Source: a virus
Lineage: Duplodnaviria; Heunggongvirae; Uroviricota; Caudoviricetes
Virus record (IMG/VR): IMGVR_UViG_2565956710_000003
Span: 1 to 46,613 of that record
Strand: one strand, 5' to 3'
Length of the DNA: 46,613 bases
The position numbers and the translations under genes are program-made. Position 1 is the first letter of the stretch, and every line of letters begins with the position of its first letter. Under the pieces are notes generated by a model. That model saw only the letters and a program-made list of their open reading frames with translations, ran no database searches and was not told the origin of the DNA. Shown piece after piece: positions 1,419 through 44,298 of this stretch.

Positions 1419-2489
1419 TTATTTGATTTCAATTTTGTCCCACTCCCTGCCTCTGTCATCACGATACTGTGATGCCATGGTGTCCGACTTATGCCCGAGA
1501 AGATGTTGAGCAAACTTATCGCTTATCTGCTTCTCATAGAGTCTTGCAGACAAACTGCGCAACTCGTGAAAGGTAGGCGGATCCCCTTCGAAGGAAAGAC
1601 CTGATGCTTTTCGTGCGCGCATAAAATACCTTGATACTGTGCCGGATGAAAGCGGTTCACGACGAGTAGATGCAATTATGGTTTCTCCGCCAAGAATCTC
1701 TTTGCATTTATCAAGTGTTTCCTTCATTGATATCCCGAGAGCATCAACATGCAATGTTGTAGGGATGGCAATTTTTACACCTGTTTTGCTTTGCTCGACA
1801 TAAAGATATCCATCTACGATATCAGACCACTTCATTTCGCATAAATCACCAACTCGCTGCCCGGTAACAACAGCCAGTTCCATTGCAAGTCTGAGCCAAC
1901 ATGGTGATGATTCTGCTGCTTGATAAATTTTCAGGTATTCGTCAGCCGTAAGTCTTGATCTCCTTACCTCTGATTTTGCAGCGCGAGTGGCAGCGACCGG
2001 GTTTATTGTTATATGGCCTTCAGCTATTGCCTCTCGGAATGCATCGCTCAGTGTTGATCTGATTAACTTGGCTGACGCCGCCTTGCCCTCGTCTATGTAT
2101 CCATTGAGCATTGCCGCAATTTCTTTTGTAGTGATGTCTTCAAGTGGAGCATCAGGCAGCCCCCTCCTTATTGCTTTAATTTTGCTCATATAATTTATGA
2201 GTGTCTTCTGCTTGATTCCTCTGCTGGCGAGGATTTTTTCGTAGCGATCAAGCCATGAATGTAACGTAACAGAATTATCACTGTTGATTCTCGCTGTCAG
2301 AGGCTTGTGTTTGTGTCCTGAAAATAACTCAATGTTGGCCTGTATTGCTTCAGTGATTGCTATCCTCCTGTCTCGGCCTAATCCAAACTCTTTACCCGTC
2401 CTTGGGTCCCTGTAGCAGTAATATCCATTGTTTCTTATATAAAGATTAGGGGGTAAATCCCGGCGCTCATGACTTCGCCTTCTTCCCAT
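1419..2489 (-). CDS. int: Lambda-type tyrosine integrase
   Basis: 356-aa ORF beginning MGRRRSHERRDLPPNLYIRNNGYYCYRDPRTGKEF, essentially lambda Int; adjacent to attL. Confidence 0.95.
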   Translation of the reverse strand: MGRRRSHERRDLPPNLYIRNNGYYCYRDPRTGKEFGLGRDRRIAITEAIQANIELFSGHKHKPLTARINSDNSVTLHSWLDRYEKILASRGIKQKTLINYMSKIKAIRRGLPDAPLEDITTKEIAAMLNGYIDEGKAASAKLIRSTLSDAFREAIAEGHITINPVAATRAAKSEVRRSRLTADEYLKIYQAAESSPCWLRLAMELAVVTGQRVGDLCEMKWSDIVDGYLYVEQSKTGVKIAIPTTLHVDALGISMKETLDKCKEILGGETIIASTRREPLSSGTVSRYFMRARKASGLSFEGDPPTFHELRSLSARLYEKQISDKFAQHLLGHKSDTMASQYRDDRGREWDKIEIK

Positions 2490-5694: not shown

Positions 5695-5985
5695 TCATGA
5701 TTTACTCTCCATGAACTGGTCAATAGCCATGCTAAGTGACACACCTAAAGTCTCGATATGCTGCTGAATATCCTGTAGCGTCTGCACCTGAGATAACAGG
5801 ATTTCACGGTTGCATAACTCTTTAACCAGATGCTCAAACTTGCTGTAATAACCGATACGGCTTAGTGTTTCTTTCCCTGCATTATCACCTTCTTTGATAA
5901 TTCCTCTTTCGCTAAGAATCAGGTCGTGTTTGGTTCCGGTAATAACGTATTTTCCGAGGTCGATGTTTAGCTTCATTGTTTTCAT
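5695..5985 (-). CDS. Hypothetical protein
   Basis: 96-aa ORF starting [10 protein letters not shown] with a GAGGAA Shine-Dalgarno upstream; the longer 146-aa reading would overlap the upstream gene. Confidence 0.45.
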
Positions 5986-9463: not shown

Positions 9464-10399
9464 TTATTCTGCGTCAATATCTTCTACGGTTAGTAGAGGG
9501 TGTACCTTATCAAGCAATTGGATGAAATCTTCATAAGTATCGCTTGCTTGCATGAGTGTTGTTACCCCTGTAAGTCTCTTTTGAAGAAGACCATATCCAG
9601 TTCCCTCTGATAGAAACTGATGCATTTTTGCACCTGCCTTTTTTGCTTTTGCTCTTTCTTCCTTTAGCGCATTTCTTAGCTCTGGTGCCATGCGGTCATA
9701 AGTTATGTTATTCACAAGATGACCAAAGTATTGCGGTCTCCGCATGTTTGCTTTGAATGGGACTCCTCTGAGTCTACATAACTCCTCAAAGAATTCTGGC
9801 GGATATGTGCTTACCCATGGTCGCATTTCTTTAGCGATGAATTGCTCAAGGAGTTTTGCCAGTTCATCGCGCTCTCGTTCTTTTTGGTATCCAGTCGCTT
9901 CATCAACGAGCGCAACGGCGCCAACTCTGGCTAGAGCTTTATAGAGCGCTTTGGCTTTTGCAGCTGTATTCAAGTGATGCTTTTGTCGTAGGGCTCCATC
10001 CCTCTCAGCATCTGTCCATGCCTCGCAAAGCGCTGGTAGCATAGTAACGTCAATGCCATAAGCGACACCTGCACCTGATGTATTTTTATATACAATTGGT
10101 TCTGCTAGCGCTTCTCTTAGTTCATCAGAAATATATGGCTGAAGCTCATTTGCTTGGAGAACATATGGTAATTGACCTGGCTTCCCATTTGGTACCCATC
10201 TTGGCATTTTTGAGCCAACAGATACACCGAATGTTTCTGCCAATCCATTTGCACCTTGCATTGAAACCACTCTGCGACCATCAGGCAAAACAGCACAAGA
10301 AACACCTGTCGCCATTAATCCTGTGTGAGTTGGCTTTGGAGCTGATCTAACGATTGCTGACATTGCTGCTGCTTTTTGAGCTCGTTTTTTAGTATCCAT
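9464..10399 (-). CDS. Uncharacterised 311-aa protein occupying the lambda rexAB position
   Basis: ATG-start ORF (MDTKKRAQKAAAMSAIV...) between cI and pL, same strand as cI; own AT-rich upstream region; no similarity to RexA/RexB that I can recognise. Confidence 0.7.
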   Translation of the reverse strand: MDTKKRAQKAAAMSAIVRSAPKPTHTGLMATGVSCAVLPDGRRVVSMQGANGLAETFGVSVGSKMPRWVPNGKPGQLPYVLQANELQPYISDELREALAEPIVYKNTSGAGVAYGIDVTMLPALCEAWTDAERDGALRQKHHLNTAAKAKALYKALARVGAVALVDEATGYQKERERDELAKLLEQFIAKEMRPWVSTYPPEFFEELCRLRGVPFKANMRRPQYFGHLVNNITYDRMAPELRNALKEERAKAKKAGAKMHQFLSEGTGYGLLQKRLTGVTTLMQASDTYEDFIQLLDKVHPLLTVEDIDAE

Positions 10400-10610
10400 A
10401 AATCCCCCATATGCTTGGTTATGGTGATGATAGCTTATTTCAAATAAGCAGGGCAATGGTAGCTAAATCATTAATTAGCTACAAAATGCATCATTTTTAT
10501 TTATCTCATTGATATGTATATATTTATCGATAAAATATTTTTAGCTGTTCTGTGATTAAGCTAAATATTAATGCTAATTAATGCGTTAGCACAATGTGTG
10601 GATCACTACC

Positions 10611-10644: not shown

Positions 10645-11361
<717 letters not shown>

Positions 11362-13142: not shown

Positions 13143-16527
<3,385 letters not shown>

Positions 16528-34693: not shown

Positions 34694-36037
34694 ATGGCTA
34701 CGTGGCAACAGGGTATTAATTCTGGTGGTTTTCTGGCTGGCATTGGTGCGCAAAACGAGAATGCGCCAAAGGCAAGCGACATTAATGCAACGCTTGGTCT
34801 GATCCGCGAAAACAATGAACTTGCTCGCTCAGGTGTAAATAACGTTGGCCTGACCGCGTTACGTGGTCTGGCTGGAGTTGCTGATATTTACAATCAGGAA
34901 CAGCAACAGAAAGCTATTAGTGCGTTCAATAAGGTTCACGCTGATGCATGGGCTTCTGGTGATCCATCGGGACTATTTAAGTTTGCCCAGGAAAATCCAG
35001 CGTTTGTTGCGCAGGCACAACAGGCGTTTTCCGGTCTTAATGAGCAGCAACGCAACGATATGGGCGATTTAGCCATGAGGGCTAACGTCGCTCTTTCTCA
35101 GGGACCGGAAGCCTACAGTAAATTCATTACTGACAACAAGGACAGGTTAAATCGCGTGGGTGCTAATGCTGACTGGATGATTCAGACAGGTATCCAGAAT
35201 CCAGAGCAGCTATCACACATGCTGACTACTATGTCTCTCGGTGCGCTTGGACCAGAAAAGGCGTTTGCTGTTCAGGATAAGATGGTTGGTCGCCAACTTG
35301 AGAAAGGGCGATTGGATGAAAGCATCCGTCAGGCTGACATGGAGAATGCGAGAGGATGGGCAAATATCCAGAACGCTCAACTAGACAGGGCTCAGCGGGC
35401 ACAAATGCACTCAGATGAGATGGGATTGAAGCTAATGGAGCTGGGGCAAAAAGGTAAGCCGTCAGCAGACTTAATTAAGGGATTAAATTCTGACATTACC
35501 AATTTTGGCAAAAATTATAACTCTGTCAGAGCGGCGGCAAACTCTCTGCAAGCCCTTAGCAAGGTAAATACTGGCGCTGCCCAACTTGGGATTATCTTTA
35601 ATTACATGAAGTCTCTCGACCCTCAGTCAGTTGTTCGCGAAGGTGAACAGGTTCAGGTCATGCGCTCTGATGGCATATGGGGGCAGATAAAAGGATATGT
35701 AGACCAGCTTAATGCAGGGAATGGCTTGTCACAGGAAGCGAGGGATAACATTGTTAACGCAGCAAAAATTAACGCCAACGCTATGGGGCAGCAGTTTAAC
35801 CAGCAGGTAGACGAATATCTGGATACGTATGGAGATACTATTCCTCAGGGGCTGAAAAAAAGCTTAGGGAGAAGGAAGGCCAAGCTATTTGACGATGTCC
35901 CAGCGCAGCCTACACCACAAGGTGGTAATGGGCAGACAAAAGCTGCGCCAAGTGGGATATCAGAAGGCGCGACGGCAACGAACCCTAAAACTGGTCAGAA
36001 ACTCATTTACAGGAACGGACAATGGCAACCGATGTAG
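34694..36037 (+). CDS. Ejection protein (P22 gp20-like)
   Basis: 447-aa ORF, second of the three ejection-protein genes by position. Confidence 0.6.
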
Positions 36038-38145
36038 GTTTACCCGAAGGCTTTGTTCTCGATAATCAGCCTGATAACTCACAGCTTCCTGATGGTTTTG
36101 TGCTTGATGCCCAACCAGAACAGCAGCAATCACCTTTGGTTTCGCCAGAGGAAAATTCCAGACAGGAAAATGTTGTTAATAATGCTAACGGTTTCGACCG
36201 TTTTATGTATGGCGTTCTCAGTGGATTGATGGATGTTGGTAAAGGTGTTGGCCTGTTTCAGGATATGACACCAGAAGAGCAAGCCGCAATTCAGTCTCTA
36301 CAGCAGAAGTTAGCGGCAAAACCATCAACCGCACAAGATGTTGGTGAGTTTGTTGGACAAGCAGCGCCATTTGTTAGTGGTGGTGGGATTATTTCTCAGG
36401 TTCCGAAAGGGGCGGCAAGGCTGGCTGCCGCCGCAGGGCTTGGTGCTGGAGAAGGGGCTATTGTAGCCAATGGAACAAATAGCGATGTTGCTTCTGGAGC
36501 TGCTATTGGCGCTGTGGCTGGCCCTGTAGCAGAGATTGTTGGTCCAGCGCTTGGGAAGATTGCAGGAAAAATTAAAAATAGTGCCGGAGATATTTATCGC
36601 TCATCCGTAGGGATGGGTAGTAAATCATCTAAAGCAACGTTAAAGAAAGCTGCTGGCGCAATGGACAATAAATTTATCGGCGGGCAACGAGCTATTCAAG
36701 ATTTCGCCGATGAAGTTAATCCTGATTTTAACGCGATAAATGCTATTCGTGAGCTAGAACTGGAAAATTATGCCACTCCAGGCATGATCTCTAATAATCC
36801 TGCTGTCAGGGCTCTTGATAATGCAGTGGCAAGTCTCCCTGGAACAGAGATTAGTGAGGCGCATAAGCGTTTTATTACTGAATTAGGAAGAAAAGCTGAT
36901 GAAATGATAACTTCATTTGGGGGAAGCCTTGATAAGCAACTGGTTTCTGACAGGCTTGCAGATAATTTTGATAAAACCATTTCATCATTACAAAATCAGT
37001 CAGATAACATCTACAACAAAATTGCCGAAAAGGTTCCTGTAAGAGACCGGATTGAGGCAACTAATACATTGAATTTTTTAGAGGATTTTGCTGATGATAT
37101 AGGTGGAATTGATGAATTATCTCCAATAATGAAGCGGACATTGAACCGACTTGATCCAAACACCTTGCCAACGTATGGGCGTTTAGATCTCGCTAGAAAG
37201 CAGGTTGGGCAAGCTATTGGCAAAGGCTCTGGCCCATTCAAGGATGAAGAAACAGGTGTTCTTAAAAAGTTATATGCAGCTATAACAGATGACCAACAGG
37301 CTGTCGCAGAAAAATATGGCGCAGGGGAGTTATGGACGCTTGGTAAGGAGTTGGTAAAAAAACGAAAATCCATTGAAGATGATGCCGTAACCGTTTTGGG
37401 TAGAAAACTTCAGCAATCAGCAATTCCAAAAGTTGAAAGTGCCGTTGTTAATATGGCAAAAGGAAACGGTGGTGACTTTAGGCAATTAATGAAGTCAATT
37501 CCAAAGGATATGCGGCAGGAAGTTGCGCTCACTTCAATGAATAAAGCATTTACCAGCTATGCTAAATCACCAGGTCAGCAATTAGGGGTTGATGGATTTG
37601 TAAAATGGTATAACGGAATGTCACGCAATGGGGCCAATATGAAGGCTCTCCGTGATGCTATTGGCACAGATGCATCAAAGCGCCTTGATACGATTTATCA
37701 AGCAGCCAAGGCTATGAATAGACTCAATACTGGTAAGCAGTATGCTAGCAGCCTTGTGGATCAGCAAGTTAATAACTTTCTGAAAGAAAAGGGTAGTCTC
37801 GCAAAAATTTATGGAATAGCCTCAAAAGCTGCTGCGGCGGAAGGTATTACAAGCTTATCTGGTCTTCCTGGTGTAGGTGCAACAGGGGTGATAACGTCAG
37901 CATTGATGTCAGGGAAAACAAGCAGGATAAAGGCTGCTGATGCTCTACTGTCTTCTCCTGAGTTTAAATCAATGCTATTTCGCCTGCAAAACGCACCAGT
38001 AGACAGAGCAGAAGTGAGACGCGTAATAGAAAGGAAACTGATGCAATCTGGGGCATTTAAGAGATGGGAGAAAACCTTATCAACAGATGAAGCAAAAACC
38101 ATTGCCCGCACGGGGATTATTACATGGCTCGCTAGTGACAGTTAG
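36022..38145 (+). CDS. Ejection protein (P22 gp16-like)
   Basis: 707-aa ORF, last and largest of the ejection-protein genes. Confidence 0.6.
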
Positions 38146-38369
38146 TCAACTTTGGTTATTTTGCCTTCTTTTTCTTGATGAACTTTGCATCCATTATCTT
38201 TTGATAGCCAAACTAAAAACTTTAAAACCTTAAACACAAGTACGGCTACTGCAATGAAAGCACCAATTGCAATTATTGCTAGCGAAATTATTTGCATTGG
38301 TGCTTTTAATGCAGGGAAAATAGTGTAAATGATCGCGAAAACAGTAATTATGAGGAACCATCGCTTCAC
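38142..38369 (-). CDS. Small two-helix membrane protein (candidate exclusion-type accessory gene)
   Basis: 75-aa ORF with a GTG start preceded by AAGGAGG at 5-nt spacing; two hydrophobic segments; opposite strand to the virion operon. Confidence 0.45.
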   Translation of the reverse strand: MKRWFLIITVFAIIYTIFPALKAPMQIISLAIIAIGAFIAVAVLVFKVLKFLVWLSKDNGCKVHQEKEGKITKVD

Positions 38370-38399
38370 ACCAACCTCCTTAGTTTTGAGCAGGATACC

Positions 38400-38765
38400 A
38401 TGAAAAAAGTTAACATTGGAAACGTACCAAAAATGCTCGTTCCGCTCTTTGAGAGCGGTACAATTGTGTTTTGCAGAGACTTTCCAGAATGGCAACGCCT
38501 GCATCAAAAACTTGGCGTGGACGTGCAGGACTCGGATGCCAACGGAGCGTCTCATACAATGAGCAGCGAGAATGGTGTTTTGCATGTGATAGGTGTGTTC
38601 AATGGCAAACTATCTACTATTGCCCATGAGTGCGCTCACATGGCATTCGATATCTGCTCAAGGGTCGGCGTTGATGTTGAACCAGGAAGAGCCAACGAGA
38701 CTTACTGCTACTTAATGAGCAGGCTTGTTGAGTTCTGCGAGCGACATATCAAAAAGCCGGAGTGA
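38400..38765 (+). CDS. Small HExxH-motif protein (putative zinc metallopeptidase-like)
   Basis: 121-aa ORF containing IAHECAHMAFD with a downstream Glu; divergent from the membrane protein gene with only a 30-bp spacer. Confidence 0.5.
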   Translation: MKKVNIGNVPKMLVPLFESGTIVFCRDFPEWQRLHQKLGVDVQDSDANGASHTMSSENGVLHVIGVFNGKLSTIAHECAHMAFDICSRVGVDVEPGRANETYCYLMSRLVEFCERHIKKPE

Positions 38766-38778
38766 CCCGGCTTGATTA

Positions 38779-38958
38779 TTACTTTTTGCTGTCTGGAGTT
38801 CGCTTATCTAATACCCAGCCATGACCTGGCTTTGTTGTTGGCGGAAGCCTTTCGTTGTCCTTGACGGTGGCAAAATTGTCTTTCTTACCTCCGCGCGGGC
38901 CAACTTCTTGGTATATTCCGCCGTTTTTTCCTGTGTTTTCACCTGGTTTTTTCGCCAT
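38779..38958 (-). CDS. Small basic Gly-rich protein (conserved about 60-aa family, function unknown)
   Basis: 59-aa ORF MAKKPGENTGKNGGIYQEVGPRGGKKDNFATVKDNERLPPTTKPGHGWVLDKRTPDSKK with a GAGGT Shine-Dalgarno. Confidence 0.5.
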   Translation of the reverse strand: MAKKPGENTGKNGGIYQEVGPRGGKKDNFATVKDNERLPPTTKPGHGWVLDKRTPDSKK

Positions 38959-39044
38959 GATATACCTCAACATGCACCCGTTATTGGGCGATTAAATATT
39001 GATCTCATTTTATGAGTAGTCAATATGGTCCAAAAAAGGCAAAA

Positions 39045-39072
39045 ATTAACCCACCGTCAGGTGGTTTTTTTG
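39045..39072. terminator. Bidirectional rho-independent terminator
   Basis: Hairpin CCACC-GTCA-GGTGG flanked by an A-run upstream and TTTTTTT downstream; overlaps the 3' end of the Mnt-like gene. Confidence 0.6.
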
Positions 39073-39377
39073 TTTAGCAGTTCTCTCAACTTTTCGTTCT
39101 GCTCTCTGAACTTTTCCTGTATTTCTTTTTGCATGGCGATAACCTGGGCTTGAAGTTGAACTAGCGCATCAACATTTAGCGGAACCGAGACGCTGTTGAT
39201 TTTATCTGCTATTTCCCCGAGTGTATTTTCTGCATTCAAGGCATCTTCCAGTATCTGAACAATCTCTGAGTTCATTGATCTGCCGTTACGTTTGGCTCGT
39301 TCAGCTATAGCATCCCGCATTCCTGCAGGAAGCCTGATATTGAACCTATCCATTTCATGACTAGGGAACTTGCTCAT
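39057..39377 (-). CDS. mnt: Mnt-like ribbon-helix-helix repressor (copy 1)
   Basis: 106-aa ORF with RHH motif FNIRLPAGMRDAIAERAKRNGRSMNSEIVQILEDAL and a C-terminal coiled coil ending KKTT, as P22 Mnt does. Confidence 0.7.
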   Translation of the reverse strand: MSKFPSHEMDRFNIRLPAGMRDAIAERAKRNGRSMNSEIVQILEDALNAENTLGEIADKINSVSVPLNVDALVQLQAQVIAMQKEIQEKFREQNEKLRELLNKKTT

Positions 39378-39488
39378 ATGACCTCAACGTAAAGATGTTC
39401 GCTAAACAATAGCACCAACTTGACATCAAAATAAATGGTGTTAAATTGGTTCTAGAACCAAGTTGGTATCATTGTGGGAGGATTACTT
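39378..39488. promoter_or_regulatory. Divergent promoter/operator region between mnt and arc
   Basis: Palindrome GGTTCTAGAACC, flanking inverted repeat ACCAACTTG...CAAGTTGGT, and TTGACA-like hexamers. Confidence 0.6.
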
Positions 39489-39662
39489 ATGAAAGATGTG
39501 CTTTACACAGGTCGTAAAAGTCAAAGTTTCCAGCTTCGTTTGCCAGCGCGAATGAAGGAGGAGATTAGACGTGTTGCTGAAATGGATGGAATTTCTATCA
39601 ACTCTGCGATTGTGCAGCGACTGGCTAAAAGCCTGAGAGAGGAAAGAGCTAATGCCCAGTAA
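39489..39662 (+). CDS. arc: Arc-like ribbon-helix-helix repressor
   Basis: 57-aa ORF MKDVLYTGRKSQSFQLRLPARMKEEIRRVAEMDGISINSAIVQRLAKSL with GGAGG upstream. Confidence 0.7.
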   Translation: MKDVLYTGRKSQSFQLRLPARMKEEIRRVAEMDGISINSAIVQRLAKSLREERANAQ

Positions 39663-39751
39663 AAATAGTGAAGCCCGGCAGTGCGTGAACACAAACCGGG
39701 CCTCTATGTCAGTAACCGTATGCAAGGAAACTAACATGAATATTGTAGCAA
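39662..39751 (-). ncRNA. Candidate sar-like antisense RNA over the ant start region (speculative)
   Basis: Minus-strand TATAAT at 39758-39763; imperfect hairpin GCCCGG...CCGGGC (39673-39701) followed on the minus strand by TCACTATTTTT in the arc-ant spacer. Confidence 0.25.
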
Positions 39752-40362
39752 AATCAGATTATAACTTCCACGGAGTTGAATTGGTGCCCACCCGTGATAT
39801 GCATGGTGTTTGGTTTACATCATCTAATATTGCATCTGCACTTAAATACGCAAATAGTCGTGCAGTAACAATGATTTATAACAAGTATAGCGATGAGTTT
39901 AGCGCCGGAATGACTCAGGTACTCGAAGTGAGTACCTCAGGAAATTATCGCAAAAAAGTGCGAGTTTTCTCACTACGCGGTGCCCACCTAATCGCGATGT
40001 TTGCTCGCACTCCGGTAGCCAAAGAGTTCCGCCGCTGGGTGCTGGATATTTTGGATCGGCAGGCAGAATGCTCACCGATTGCAAAACAGTTTACTGACGA
40101 AGAACTGGTTAATCTCTGCTACTTACAATTGTGGATGGAGAAGAGTCAACAAATGTGCAAACACATCTACCCAGGAATGAAGCAAATTGGCTCTGAGCTT
40201 TCAGGAAGAATTTACGATATTGCATATGAGACTCGCTATATGTCAGAAGAAACCAAGAAATCACTTCTTCGTGAAATGAAGAATCTTGATACCAACAATT
40301 TTGTCGTAAAGAACGCTCAGCCAATGCTGACAAAACTGCGCGGCGAGGAATGGATTCATTGA
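39736..40362 (+). CDS. ant: Antirepressor with BRO-N domain
   Basis: About 208 aa from MNIVAKSD (AAGGA Shine-Dalgarno); N-terminal FHGVELVPTRDMHGVWFTSSNIASALKY is BRO-N-like; start uncertain (alternatives at 39652 and 39706). Confidence 0.6.
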   Translation: MNIVAKSDYNFHGVELVPTRDMHGVWFTSSNIASALKYANSRAVTMIYNKYSDEFSAGMTQVLEVSTSGNYRKKVRVFSLRGAHLIAMFARTPVAKEFRRWVLDILDRQAECSPIAKQFTDEELVNLCYLQLWMEKSQQMCKHIYPGMKQIGSELSGRIYDIAYETRYMSEETKKSLLREMKNLDTNNFVVKNAQPMLTKLRGEEWIH

Positions 40363-40384
40363 TTGGTGCGCCGGACGGCGCAAA

Positions 40385-40456
40385 AAGAAAACCGCCAGTG
40401 TGCTGCTGGCGGCCTATGTCACACCCTTACTACCACATAAGGAATGCCTAATGACT
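40385..40456 (-). ncRNA. Candidate sar-like antisense RNA over the start of the second antirepressor gene (speculative)
   Basis: Minus-strand GTGACA, 17-bp spacer, TACATT inside the first codons of the 40451 gene; hairpin CCGCCAG-TGTGCTG-CTGGCGG (40393-40413) followed on the minus strand by TTTTCTTTTT. Confidence 0.3.
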
Positions 40457-41176
40457 TTGAAGAATGTAGCAAACATCGGATCCGTTGTCACGGATAAAAC
40501 CATTGACAGCCAAAGTCTTCTGATGATGGTTAATGAAGCTCGCAAGTTATGTGGAGAGCCATCAGTACGTAACAACAAATTCATCGAGAAAATTGAGGAT
40601 GAATTGGAGGGCGAGACCTACACAAAAAGTGTAGGTCGGAAAAACGGGGCTGACATTGATGTTATCTCCATGACTATCAAGCAGGCGCTTCGTGTTGCTG
40701 CTCGCGAATCTAAAGCAGTTCGCCGAACACTTGTAGACAAACTTGAAAGTATGCAGGAAGCACACATTAAAAGCGGTAAATCAGCGAGTGGACTTGTTGA
40801 GTATCGTCAAGCGCGAACACTGAAAATGACGGTTGAAGCTGTTACCAATCTGTTCGATCTGATGCCAAATCTTGCGCCGGAGGCAAAGCAGACAGCGGCA
40901 GCAAGTATAATCAACCCGCTTGTTGGTTTTAATGCAATACCTCTTCCGGCAATAGAAGAGCATTACTACTCAGCAGGGGAGGTTGCAGAGCAGCTTGGAG
41001 TAACGGCCAACAAGATTGGTCGCATTGCTAACGCAAACAACCTCAAAACTGAGCAGTACGGGAAGTTCTTCCTGGATAAATCGGCGCATTCCAGCAAACA
41101 GGTAGAGGCGTTCCGCTACAATTCTGAAGGCGTTAAAGCACTACAACACCTGCTACATGGCTCAAATGTGGCGTAA
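40451..41176 (+). CDS. Second antirepressor-like protein (KilA-C/ANT-type C-terminal domain)
   Basis: 241-aa ORF with AAGGA 7 nt upstream; the C-terminal segment YSAGEVAEQLGVTANKIGRIANANNLKTEQYGKFFL is ANT-like. Confidence 0.55.
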   Translation: MTLKNVANIGSVVTDKTIDSQSLLMMVNEARKLCGEPSVRNNKFIEKIEDELEGETYTKSVGRKNGADIDVISMTIKQALRVAARESKAVRRTLVDKLESMQEAHIKSGKSASGLVEYRQARTLKMTVEAVTNLFDLMPNLAPEAKQTAAASIINPLVGFNAIPLPAIEEHYYSAGEVAEQLGVTANKIGRIANANNLKTEQYGKFFLDKSAHSSKQVEAFRYNSEGVKALQHLLHGSNVA

Positions 41177-41195
41177 CATTTTATAATGAAAACTA

Positions 41196-41219
41196 AACCC
41201 GCTTAATCGCGGGTTTTTT
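41196..41219. terminator. Bidirectional terminator between convergent genes
   Basis: Hairpin ACCCGC-TTAATC-GCGGGT followed by TTTTTTC. Confidence 0.65.
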
Positions 41220-41460
41220 CTTTCCTTAGAATTTCAGCCGCAACTTCTTTTACTCGTTCCGAGATTAATGAGGCCAGTCTCTCTTCTTCATCACGATACC
41301 CGCTTACAGGTGATGGTTTGGAGAGAGATTCTTCCATCGTAGCCACAATTTCGGAATTGATAGACCTGTTATTCATTTTTGCACGCTGCTTAATCTTAGC
41401 GTGCAACTCGTGCGTAAGCCTCAAGTGGAACTGCGCCTCATCGTATTTGCTGTACATCAT
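41203..41460 (-). CDS. mnt: Mnt-like ribbon-helix-helix repressor (copy 2)
   Basis: 85-aa protein from MMYSKYDEAQFHLRLTHELHAKIKQRAKMNNRSINSEIVATMEESLSKPSPVSGYRDEEERLA, closely resembling P22 Mnt (recalled). Confidence 0.7.
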   Translation of the reverse strand: MMYSKYDEAQFHLRLTHELHAKIKQRAKMNNRSINSEIVATMEESLSKPSPVSGYRDEEERLASLISERVKEVAAEILRKEKTRD

Positions 41461-41592
41461 CAATGCCTCACCAAATGGGTGGAATGGCATCGTAAAACCT
41501 ACTGTACAAATCAACAATCGTACCGTTTCGGTATGTAACAAACACTAGCCGTAGCCATGCTGCGGCGATTCCTTGTATCTGGAGCAAATTAA

Positions 41593-44298
41593 ATGACAGA
41601 CATTACAGCCAATGTTGTGGTAAGCATGCCATCGCAACTCTTCACTATGGCGCGTTCTTTTAAAGCTGTAGCTAATGGCAAAATTTATATCGGTAAAATT
41701 GACACTGACCCGGTAAATCCTGAAAACCAGATTCAAGTTTATGTAGAGAACGAAGATGGCTCTCACGTTCCTGTTACACAGCCAATCGTCATCAATGCCG
41801 CTGGGTATCCAGTATATAACGGACAGATTGCCAAATTCGTAACCGTGCAAGGCCATTCTATGGCTGTTTACGATGCTTATGGCACTCAGCAGTTTTATTT
41901 TCCAAATGTATTAAAATACGATCCAGATCAGTTTGGCCCAGACTTCAAAGAGCAGTTATCTCAATCAGGAGCATACATTAATGATGATTCAAAAGGTGAT
42001 GCATTAATTGGTGTAAGGCAGCCATTTACCGGGGCTGTAACTATAACTCAGCATGAAAACAATGCTCTTTTCTTAAATGTAAAACAATTTGGAGCAATTG
42101 GGGATGGGAAATATCATCCATTATCTGAGTGGTTTTCTTCAATTTCTGAAGCAAAATCCTTATATCCTTTTGTTGACTCATTATCTCAGTCAATAGACTG
42201 GGCCGCGTGGCAAGCTGCCCTTAACACAGGAAAGGTTATTTATGGTACTGATAATGCGTATGTAATAACGGATACGTTAACACCTGTTTCTGGTGGTGGG
42301 ATAATTTGTCTTGGTGTGGGCAAATGGGTCTCAGGATATACTGCAACATTTGCTCCTGATATTACCACAGGAACCACATTCCTGATGTACGGGGTAGGAA
42401 ATAAAAAATATACTGTAGATTGTGTTTCTAATATGGATGTTAGTGGTGGTGTGGTTTCTAATCCATCTTCCGAAGACCCGTATACAACAACGGCACCTGC
42501 GTCATCATATGATTTATTGGATTTTACTAACGGTGATGCTAATGGGGCTATAAGAGCCACGCTTAAACCATTCTCTGCCGCAATATTGATGCCTGAGACA
42601 GGATGTGTTCGCCTTGAGAACTTTCGTATTGTTCCATATTTCAATGGGCTGGATGGTTATAAAGACATTGCAAATACCGGTCTTGGCGATGAGTGGGATG
42701 TAGGTATTTGGTCACGTGCTTCTTTTGGCAATGAATACCGCAATTTGCAGGTGGTTGGATACTGGCGCAAGACGGCACTTTTAAAAACGAACATTCCTGT
42801 ATCTGGCACGCTGGCCGCTCAGGGCGAGGATGAAAACTATTATCACTGTAGATTCCAAGGATTCAAGGGTGTTTCGATCCGCGCCCATGATGTATTCCGA
42901 ATTACAGCGGTAACGTCCAGCACTATCGAAATCCCATGGTCAGCAAGCCACACCTTCGAAACGTCCGGGGTTTTAAGATCTGGAGGCAGGAATTTCACTT
43001 ATTCAGGATTATCCGTATCCGGTGATAAGTTAGTATTTACTGGAGTGTCTAACGCTTCTGAGGCAACAGTAGGTTCTACTATACGGCGAAATGACATAGA
43101 TAACTTTGGTATGGCGGGAACGCAATTTTTCGATTGCTACATTACCAGCCTGTATCACCACACACATCTGCTTGCCACATCGCAATACCTGTCTCAACCA
43201 TTCAGCCGACCATCAGAGTGTATGGAGGTTTCAGGGGAACCAGTTCGCGGTGTACAGGTACATGCAGGAACCATTCAGGGATGGGATGATGTTCTTATTC
43301 ATCTACATGACTGTGGAAATATGAACTTTTACAGTACATATTTCGAAAGCCAGCAAGCATATGTAACTATAAATGGTGGTAATGCTATTGGTTATGGAGC
43401 ACGTATGATAGCTTCCCGGCAATCAACAAGCTCATTACCATATGCAGCAGGGAATACTCGAGTGCTTAGAATGGTCGGGTGCTCTGAAGGCAATGGCGTT
43501 GACTGGGGGCCTGTATTTAACAACTATACAGGAGGAAGATATAATTCTGGAGACGGTGTATTTAACCCCCGCGATGCATTTATAGACCATAAATCTCTTC
43601 CTGAGCAGTCAGGAGGTGAGTCAAGACTCGTATCACAAAAAGGAAATGCCAGAGTAGTATGTGGTGTTGGTAAAACTGTACTGCTTGGACCAACGTCAGG
43701 AGATTGTAATTTACAGAGTAATACTGGAAGTTTAAATATTAGAAGTGGGATAAGAGTAAGAATCGGTCACGCTGATGGAACAGACTGGTGGTTGGCAGAT
43801 GCTAATAAAATAGCTCCTGTTGATGATAATGTTAAAGCTATTGGACAGCCATCAAACAGATGCTCTGTTATTTATGCAGGAACCGGGTCAATCAATACAT
43901 CAGATGAAACTCTTAAAACAAGATATGATATTCTTAATGCAGAGCGTGATGCCGCTATTGAAATAAAGTCAGTCATCTATAAATTTAAATTTAATGACTC
44001 AATTAATCACAAAGGAATTGAGTCGTCCAGGTATCATTTTGGCGTTGGCGCTCAAACCGTAGGGGATATTCTTAGAAAGCATGGTTTAAACCCTGAGCAA
44101 TATGCTTTTTGGTGTTACGATGAATGGCCTGACGTATGGGATGAAGAGGTGATAACTGAAGAGAGCACAGATCCTGATACAGGTGAGAAAATTTATTCTC
44201 AATATAAAACAGGAGATATGATTCTTGTTAAAAAAGCAGGAGGACGCTACGGAATTCGTTATGACGAATTGGCTATGTTTATATTAATGGCAATGTAG
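41593..44298 (+). CDS. Tailspike: P22-type head-binding domain, divergent receptor domain, C-terminal intramolecular chaperone
   Basis: 901-aa ORF; N-terminus [59 protein letters not shown] matches the P22 gp9 head-binding domain; C-terminus has an S74-type autoprocessing signature ([12 protein letters not shown]). Confidence 0.85.

Follow-up and report, generated by a model that had tools for sequence, protein, structure and literature searches.

The interval between genes 16 and 9 of P22-like phages, in which P22 carries its immI region, is known as a hypervariable 'ant moron': ten gene-content types have been described in sixteen genomes, and that work attributes the variation to insertions and deletions on an ancestral moron (Villafane et al. 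2008, PMC2629481). The P22 antirepressor Ant is reported to act on lambda CI as well (as cited in PMC3064807), and for phage L the role of an mnt-like gene has been explicitly left open (PMC8022706). Here we consider the same interval in a 46,613-nt stretch of viral DNA (IMG/VR record IMGVR_UViG_2565956710_000003, positions 1 to 46,613; henceforth the window), which is a complete P22-like (Lederbergvirus-type) prophage in Escherichia coli and in which the gene order is mnt1 - arc - ant1 - ant2 - mnt2 - tailspike gene (Table 1). This region is, in our judgement, probably a mosaic ant moron composed of two regulatory units that are independent of each other, and not a duplicated immI. Unit 1 (39057-41176) would be a P22-type immI switch that drives two unrelated antirepressors, and unit 2 (41203-41535) would comprise Mnt2, its operator and its promoter Pmnt2, a division that we likewise hold to be rather likely.

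Profile matches located all the genes where an earlier reading, made from the letters alone (the sequence-only reading), had placed them, and the region indeed exceeds the immI of P22: it encodes two intact ribbon-helix-helix (RHH) repressors of the Arc/Mnt family, both on the minus strand, an Arc-like protein, and two antirepressor-type proteins. Both repressor open reading frames (ORFs) are intact, and neither Mnt copy is a truncated remnant, which had been named in the sequence-only reading as a refuting condition. The alignment of the two copies and of their operators, which that reading had proposed, recovered a shared RHH segment of only 45 residues (38% identity), whereas the C-terminal domains are unrelated and the operators differ. 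As Mnt1 and Mnt2 have no more than this segment in common, and Ant1 and Ant2 are unrelated to each other, the idea that the extra copies arose by duplication is not supported; Mnt1 and Mnt2 also belong to different PHROGs. Nor does the architecture require the layered control that had been suggested along with the duplication, because the mnt2 unit and the ant cassette each occur alone. Gene identities, the homology of the control regions, the co-variation of operators with DNA-binding domains, purifying selection, modular independence, and the conservation of antisense promoters and terminators were all computed here.

The whole region occupies the interval between the homologues of genes 16 and 9, that is, the P22 immI slot. 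From 38367 to 39073, through hkcC, orf59a, the terminator and the last mnt codons, the window is ~97.5% identical to P22 DNA, and therefore mnt1 sits exactly at the position of P22 mnt, the junction with the P22-like DNA falling within the final mnt1 codons (KKTT). Mnt1 has the beta-strand DRFNIRLP and a long helical C-terminal domain unrelated to that of P22 Mnt, with which its C-terminal 55 residues do not align. The 111-bp gap between mnt1 and arc contains the top sigma-70 match of a 4-kb scan, a Pant-like promoter, and the centre of the dyad at 39454-39470 lies 15 nt past the -10 element of this promoter, which equals the distance between Omnt and the Pant -10 in P22. We assign this dyad to Mnt1, as its candidate operator, because the dyad tracks the beta-strand of the left repressor among relatives: left repressors with DRFNIRLP keep it even where the C-terminal domain has been swapped (as in the relative L010), and relatives with an ERFTVR(M/L)P left repressor have the palindrome ATGACATCATGGTGATGTCAT at the same position. 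The divergent mnt1 and arc genes, with an operator at the start of Pant, thus show the geometry of a P22-type immI, with the binding itself being predicted.

The two antirepressor-type proteins of this rightward operon are built from different domains. The BRO-N antirepressor gene of the sequence-only reading is indeed present: residues 23-105 of Ant1 match Bro-N (PF02498, E=1.9e-10, above the gathering score), and the protein also matches P22_AR_C (E=2.8e-14), with 29% identity to the C-terminal domain of P22 Ant (E=1e-9); its N-terminal domain is thus Bro-N and not P22_AR_N as in P22 Ant. The second gene proved antirepressor-like as well, judging from its PHROG, but the KilA-C/ANT-type C-terminus that had been ascribed to it was not recovered: neither Ant2 nor any of 21 relatives (68-91% identity) matched PF03374 at E<=5, a model with which P1 Ant reaches E=5e-24. 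Ant2 is tied to the antirepressors because its N-terminal domain (residues 14-105) matches P1 Ant, an antirepressor named from experiment, being 73% identical over 95 residues to P1 Ant1/Ant2 (E=8e-45); in an hhalign comparison with P1 Ant, this domain alone aligns (probability 100%). The C-terminus of Ant2 models, with medium confidence (pLDDT 71), as a winged helix-turn-helix (HTH) of the MerR/Par/RacA-like kind, and not as PF03374. Ant2 had no match in Pfam and NCBIfam, a PDB sequence search with the Ant2 family profile gave none at E<=1, and no similarity was detected between Ant2 and P22 Ant; Stx2a phages carry homologues (~61% identity) with the annotation anti-repressor. With Bro-N and P22_AR_C in one protein and a P1-Ant N-domain and winged HTH in the other, cross-specific antirepression by two different Ant types appears plausible. 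In two relatives (L012 and L048), the Ant2 match is broken into two pieces with ~1.3 kb between them, pointing to an insertion within ant2; the annotation of this region in E. coli LCP17S3_I1 (H44) includes an IS3-family transposase.

Each ant gene appears to travel with its own predicted sar-like antisense cassette. In P22, the sar promoter (TGCTATACT, minus strand) lies in the first ant codons and the sar terminator in the arc-ant spacer, and an extended -10 element, TGCTAnAnT, is common to P22 ant, ant1 and ant2, inside the first codons of each. In ant1 this element is TGCTACAAT (39750-39742, minus strand), at the same place as the P22 sar promoter within ant, and the 73-nt minus-strand stretch of the first predicted RNA has a two-hairpin fold laid out like P22 sar (z=-6.7). 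The equivalent site scores as a promoter also in Escherichia phage JEP4, where the first antirepressor gene (annotated Rha) and ant1 have their first ~12 codons and the spacer upstream in common. The second cassette has a promoter GTGACA-17-TACATT with TG (40491-40463, minus strand) and a canonical minus-strand terminator (40415-40389) with a T-run. The -35, the extended -10 and the terminator of this cassette persist in relatives with a different upstream gene and no more than 44-64% identity in Ant2, and the mosaic boundary in ant2 relatives falls immediately upstream of the sar2 terminator.

Turning to unit 2, Mnt2 is the closer homologue of P22 Mnt (45% identity overall): its beta-strand is AQFHLRL, and its C-terminal part, SKPSPVSGYRD..., can be aligned to the corresponding half of P22 Mnt, so that it has the SKPSPVxGYR... 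domain. The start of mnt2 at 41460 is supported by a conserved Shine-Dalgarno sequence, GGTGAGG. The PGAP start, which would give 95 aa, was rejected: in relatives, 1-nt indels break the frame of the additional upstream stretch, which is therefore non-coding, and the stretch runs into the conserved -10 of Pmnt. The gene is divergent from the tailspike gene, as had been noted from the sequence, and the 132-bp gap between them aligns colinearly with the mnt-arc control region of P22. The predicted Mnt2 operator is centred 15 nt past the -10 of the Pant homologue, and 2 bp separate its edge from the -35 of Pmnt2. This operator is present as a single exact copy in the 46.6-kb window, where the matches with one mismatch, at 16407 and 42027, are at chance level.

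Some further elements were noticed around unit 2. A dyad, CACC..GGTG, spans the mnt2 5' untranslated region and Shine-Dalgarno sequence (41469-41481) and is kept by compensatory changes (CACT..AGTG in P22, CACTT..AAGTG in the L type); it could form a hairpin in the RNA or serve as a further binding site for a protein. The conserved hairpin before gene 9 is, by its sequence, a recurrent recombination boundary of the moron. P22-pbi (~5745-5795, in the interval between t_ant and gene 9) has a relic of an ant2-like gene downstream of ant, in which ...ELEGETYKKIVGRK... corresponds to DELEGETYTKSVGRK in the ant2 gene of the window (40600-40650), with a core match of 24/26 nt; the hairpin sequence CCGTAGCCAyGCT lies as a direct repeat on either side of the relic, and the same relic stands beside an Mnt2-type gene in L081. 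About half of the relatives have a 73-aa ORF between ant2 and mnt2 (5506-5727 in L001, 4776-4997 in L005, and many IMG/VR loci), which is absent from the window (41176-41203).

The evolution of unit 2 can be judged from the 80 IMG/VR loci that were found to contain Mnt2. The mnt2 gene is divergent from a tailspike head-binding domain in 79 of them, the exception being a contig that ends there, and the gap to gene 9 is ~132 bp in most, the exceptions being due to homing-endonuclease insertion or ant relics; the mnt2 ORF is intact in all 80. The left repressor of these loci belongs to the Mnt1 family in 28 cases and is C2-like HTH in 20-22. The inserted ORF, seen in L018, L033, L036 and L083, encodes a 180-aa HNH/AP2-type homing-endonuclease-like protein on the opposite strand between mnt2 and the tailspike gene; it follows the first ~7 tailspike codons, with a new tailspike start downstream and a gap of ~650-665 bp.

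Within this family, operator and DNA-binding strand change together. The strand class Q,H,R (...AQFHLRL...) pairs with the operator class GTACCgT, GTACC(G/A)TTTnGGTA; the class Q,N,R (...PQFNLRLP..., in L075-79, L and SE1) pairs with AGACCAC(C/T)GTGGTCT; and the class H,N,R (PHFNFRMP, in P22) pairs with the GGTCCAC operator AGGTCCACGGTGGACCT. The C-terminal domains have been exchanged independently of this pairing. The 44-46 N-terminal codons of Mnt2 show 15-23% nucleotide divergence between lineages, almost all of it synonymous, with a synonymous divergence (dS) of up to ~2, which is near saturation, a nonsynonymous divergence (dN) of 0.01-0.05, and an omega of ~0.02; the DNA-binding domain of Mnt2 is under strong purifying selection. 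Both the Pmnt hexamers and the Shine-Dalgarno sequence are conserved across the relatives.

These data bear on the possibility that Mnt2 is a decaying, functionless relic of a former immI, the arc-ant genes of which were deleted. Such an origin is listed among the possibilities in the phage L paper (PMC8022706), and it would agree with the degenerate Pant-homologous promoter, with the ant-gene relics at the mnt2/gene 9 junction in P22, L069 and L081, and with the loss of the beta-strand from the mnt2 gene of Klebsiella phage phiKp_30. However, the uniformly intact ORF, synonymous sites near saturation at so low an omega, the joint change of operator and DNA-binding residues, and the conserved Pmnt hexamers and Shine-Dalgarno sequence all speak against decay, and we regard the relic interpretation as very improbable. 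Because the operator tracks the DNA-binding strand, omega is ~0.02, and Pmnt and the Shine-Dalgarno sequence are conserved, Mnt2 is no relic, even though its predicted operator overlaps only a weak rightward promoter. In phiKp_30 (L004, 4111-5108), ant2 (87%) is found together with two-thirds of mnt2, from its 3' side, in another genomic setting; with its N-terminus replaced and the DNA-binding beta-strand missing, this mnt2 copy is probably inactive.

If unit 2 is selected, it could be asked whether Mnt2 chiefly regulates the tailspike, with a dedicated promoter in the 132-bp gap kept off in the lysogen and providing, upon infection, extra transcription of gene 9 that does not depend on the late promoter. 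The invariant adjacency to gene 9, the near-constant spacing, and the placement of the Mnt2 operator where Omnt blocks Pant in P22 would all fit, and an influence of the ant moron and its repressors on tailspike levels has been suggested (PMC2629481). The promoter in question, however, is poor. The Pant homologue has lost the TT of its -35, and in ~70 orphan modules its -10 (CAAATC, TAAATC, TATATC, ATAACT, TAAATA) never ends in T; no other sigma-70-like rightward promoter was found in the 132-bp gap. We therefore consider a chief role in tailspike regulation unlikely.

Alternatively, Mnt2 could be a second maintenance repressor that binds the Mnt1-type dyad at Pant, so that both repressors lock arc-ant1-ant2. 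The two proteins are, after all, Arc/Mnt-family RHH repressors with 38% identity in the DNA-binding domain, and the Mnt1 dyad fits the Mnt2 consensus in that it holds one perfect (ATACCAA) and one near-perfect (GAACCAA, one change relative to GTACC) Mnt2-type half-site. On the other hand, the ant cassette is present without mnt2 in the E. coli prophage L006 (mnt1-arc-ant1-ant2), and mnt2 is present without recognisable ant genes in 26 of the 80 loci and in the isolated phages Sf101, L/ST64T and SE1, which have mnt beside gene 9 only. Loci of the JEP4 type (JEP4, L007) hold mnt2 and yet have a Pant region governed by an HTH left repressor and lacking an Mnt2-type site. Moreover, the beta-strand residues of Mnt1 and Mnt2 differ (R,N,R vs Q,H,R), and in this family they follow the operator changes. 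Layered control of this kind thus appears quite unlikely.

The preferred reading, that of two independent units, has to be set against several observations that weigh against it. The Mnt2-type half-sites in the Mnt1 dyad may mean that the units are not fully independent; the chance of such a half-site match in the 111-bp mnt1-arc gap is ~3%, by a rough estimate, and the half-sites are explained equally well by the family resemblance of the operators. The rightward promoter of unit 2 is so poor (ATGGCA/CAAATC, without the T at -7) that its repression may matter little. No Mnt2-type operator before arc-ant was found among the matches listed in a scan of IMG/VR with an exact 14-mer of the Mnt2 operator core, which sought sites before arc or ant; the P22-like matches listed all belong to the mnt2/gene 9 module, and 109 of the 120 loci among the matches listed are due to chance, among them a promoter element that is repeated in an unrelated, GC-rich phage. 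The assignment of an operator to Arc had to be dropped, as two control regions paired with the same Arc share only the motif AATGGTGT. As to the antisense cassettes, the first hairpin of the second is not significantly stable (z=-1.8), and an Rfam scan of 38000-42000 gave no sar match at E<=1; because of this Rfam result, the two RNAs are referred to as predicted analogues and not as members of the sar family. The only Rfam matches at E<=1 in this segment are weak ones, to RyhB and isrK, at the terminator between ant2 and mnt2.

The 14-mer scan also drew attention to five unrelated GC-rich viral contigs (L099, L106, L131, L148, L171), in which two copies of the 18-mer GTACCGTTTCGGTATGTA lie 515 bp from each other; each is part of a repeated, promoter-like element that precedes a small gene. 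These contigs gave no homologue of Mnt2 or of the tailspike, and the repeats are probably coincidental to the mnt2 finding.

Returning to the model of two independent units, the following scheme can be drawn, in which every binding event, the activity and targets of the antirepressors, the sar-like RNAs themselves and the action of Mnt2 in trans are inferred from sequence and from analogy to P22. Unit 1 most likely operates in the manner of P22 immI. In the lysogen, Mnt1, made from a leftward promoter, would bind its candidate operator and silence arc-ant1-ant2. Upon infection, or upon loss of Mnt1, the operon would fire in a burst, and Ant1 and Ant2 would bind and inactivate CI-type repressors, the candidates being the CI of the phage itself and those of co-resident lambdoid prophages; Arc would then turn the Pant-like promoter off, and the two cis-antisense sar-like RNAs, one per ant gene, would limit the translation of each antirepressor. 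Two unrelated Ant types could plausibly broaden the range of the CI-type repressors that are inactivated. Mnt2, presumably as a tetramer, would bind its own dyad and occlude the vestigial Pant-type promoter facing the tailspike gene; as the site abuts the -35 of Pmnt2, it may affect its own promoter too. Its selective value would most likely lie in its action as a prophage-made repressor at this site and, in trans, at the same type of operator in related incoming phages. A more far-reaching proposal, which we find rather doubtful but put forward tentatively, is that the tailspike-adjacent Mnt/operator unit is a selected element with or without ant genes, acting either as a tailspike regulator or as a trans 'anti-antirepressor' that silences incoming Pant-type promoters, and that it cross-binds the Mnt1 operator to yield a double lock.

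Antirepressor modules determine the induction of prophages by one another or by incoming phages, so that one operon with two unrelated antirepressors, each with an antisense brake, would widen the set of repressors that a single phage can disable. For the mnt-like gene of phages L, ST64T and Sf101, there are now a predicted 17-bp operator, three specificity classes and a signature of selection.

Table 1. Coordinates of the features discussed, in window order
Feature	Position	Strand	Details
Integrase gene	1419-2489		
CI-type repressor gene	10645-11358		HTH_3 + Peptidase_S24
Gene 16 homologue (gp16-type ejection protein)	36022-38145		
Bidirectional intrinsic terminator 3' of mnt1	39051-39064		Hairpin CCACCGTCAGGTGG, T-runs on both strands; matches the terminator just downstream of P22 mnt
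mnt1	39057-39377	-	106 aa; Pfam Arc PF03869, E=1.6e-20; phrog_1287
Pant-like sigma-70 promoter for arc-ant1-ant2	39420-39447	+	TTGACA-16-TAAATT with TG; 10/12 match
Perfect 16-bp palindrome	39446-39461		TTGGTTCTAGAACCAA; overlaps Pant -10/+1; sole copy in the window
Candidate Mnt1 operator	39454-39470		AGAACCAA-G-TTGGTATC (AGAACCAAGTTGGTATC); overlaps the palindrome 39446-39461
arc-like RHH gene	39489-39662	+	57 aa; PF03869, E=8e-12; first gene of the rightward operon
Predicted sar-like antisense RNA 1	39664-39736	-	Two hairpins; complementary to ant1 ribosome-binding site and start codon
ant1	39736-40362	+	208 aa; Bro-N + P22_AR_C antirepressor-type protein
Predicted sar-like antisense RNA 2	40380-40456	-	Complementary to ant2 ribosome-binding site and start codon
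ant2	40451-41176	+	241 aa; PHROG 1726 'anti-repressor', E=4e-101
Bidirectional terminator common to convergent ant2 and mnt2	41195-41216		T-runs on both strands
mnt2	41203-41460	-	85 aa; Arc PF03869, E=3.2e-15; PHROG 795 = P22 Mnt family
Degenerate P22 Pant homologue	41484-41512	+	ATGGCA-17-CAAATC vs P22 TTGACA-17-TATATT; points into the tailspike gene
Pmnt2	41489-41517	-	TTGTTG-17-TACGAT; homologous to P22 Pmnt TTGAGA-17-TATCAT; both hexamers conserved in relatives
Predicted Mnt2 operator	41519-41535		CGTACCGT-T-TCGGTATG; corresponds to P22 Omnt
Conserved hairpin before gene 9	41548-41566	+	CCGTAGCCATGCTGCGG; same sequence at junctions in P22, L069, L081
Tailspike gene (gene 9 homologue)	41593-44298	+	Head_binding, E=9e-67; P22 head-binding domain

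As to the genomic setting, further landmarks of the prophage are CII and a Q antiterminator. The bidirectional terminators that the sequence-only reading had placed between the units are present as T-run hairpins on both strands. Among 5,426 complete E. coli genomes, 13, that of strain 55989 being one of them, contain the whole region (at least 80% covered, 94-98% identity), whereas mnt2 together with its control region is found in 66 and ant2 in 76; PGAP labels the products 'Arc family DNA-binding protein', 'P22AR C-terminal domain-containing protein' and 'hypothetical protein'. Upstream of the region, a 147-aa ORF (38142-38585, minus strand) shares 186 bp with the hkcC homologue (38400-38765, plus strand). 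Its similarity to a phage family, phrog_7294, is confined to the C-terminal 75 residues, and in relatives a gene of 109 aa (hkcB-like) is annotated; the real gene is probably shorter (~38142-38471). Just downstream of the CI-type repressor gene, on the same strand, lies a gene for a 330-aa P63C-domain protein (9464-10456, minus strand).

Taken together, the region is another architectural variant of a known, highly mosaic system, and the general view of P22-like immI regions as highly mosaic stays as before; what is added are specificity classes for repressor and operator, a signal of selection on the orphan Mnt, a predicted antisense cassette for each ant gene, and a P1-Ant-like domain in a P22-like immI. 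The composition mnt1-arc-ant1-ant2-mnt2 is not described in the accessible text of the ant moron paper, which there contains no analysis of operators or of the mnt/gene 9 pairing (PMC2629481).

Like the window, P22 immI has a leftward RHH maintenance repressor, a divergent strong promoter with an operator centred 15 nt past the -10, a small Arc-type first gene, and an antisense promoter TGCTAnAnT that lies within the first codons of ant and is paired with a terminator in the spacer before the gene. Unlike P22, the window has a different Mnt1 C-domain and operator, its Ant1 retains P22_AR_C only, with Bro-N as the N-domain, and it adds the unrelated ant2 with an antisense cassette and a second mnt/operator unit before gene 9. 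The immI of P1 encodes Ant1/Ant2 proteins similar in size to Ant2 of the window and closely related to it in the N-domain, but the P1 Ant C-terminus is PF03374 ANT/KilAC, which that of Ant2 is not; P1 ant, moreover, is controlled via the c4 antisense RNA and not by a cis-antisense, sar-type RNA.

Escherichia phage JEP4 (MT740315) has the same gene order, with ant2 99% and mnt2 98% identical to those of the window; in JEP4, however, Mnt1 and Arc are replaced by a C2-like HTH repressor and a different small protein, the first antirepressor has Bro-N and P22_AR_C too but differs in sequence from Ant1, and the 73-aa ORF before mnt2 is present. The orphan mnt of L/ST64T/ST104, SE1, Sf101, IME10 and VSe13 is the unit 2 module, divergent from gene 9 across a gap of ~130 bp with a homologous control region. 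The operator class of L and SE1 is AGACCAC, whereas that of the window is GTACCgT, and whereas mnt is the sole immI-type gene in the orphan-mnt phages, the window combines mnt2 with a full antirepressor cassette.

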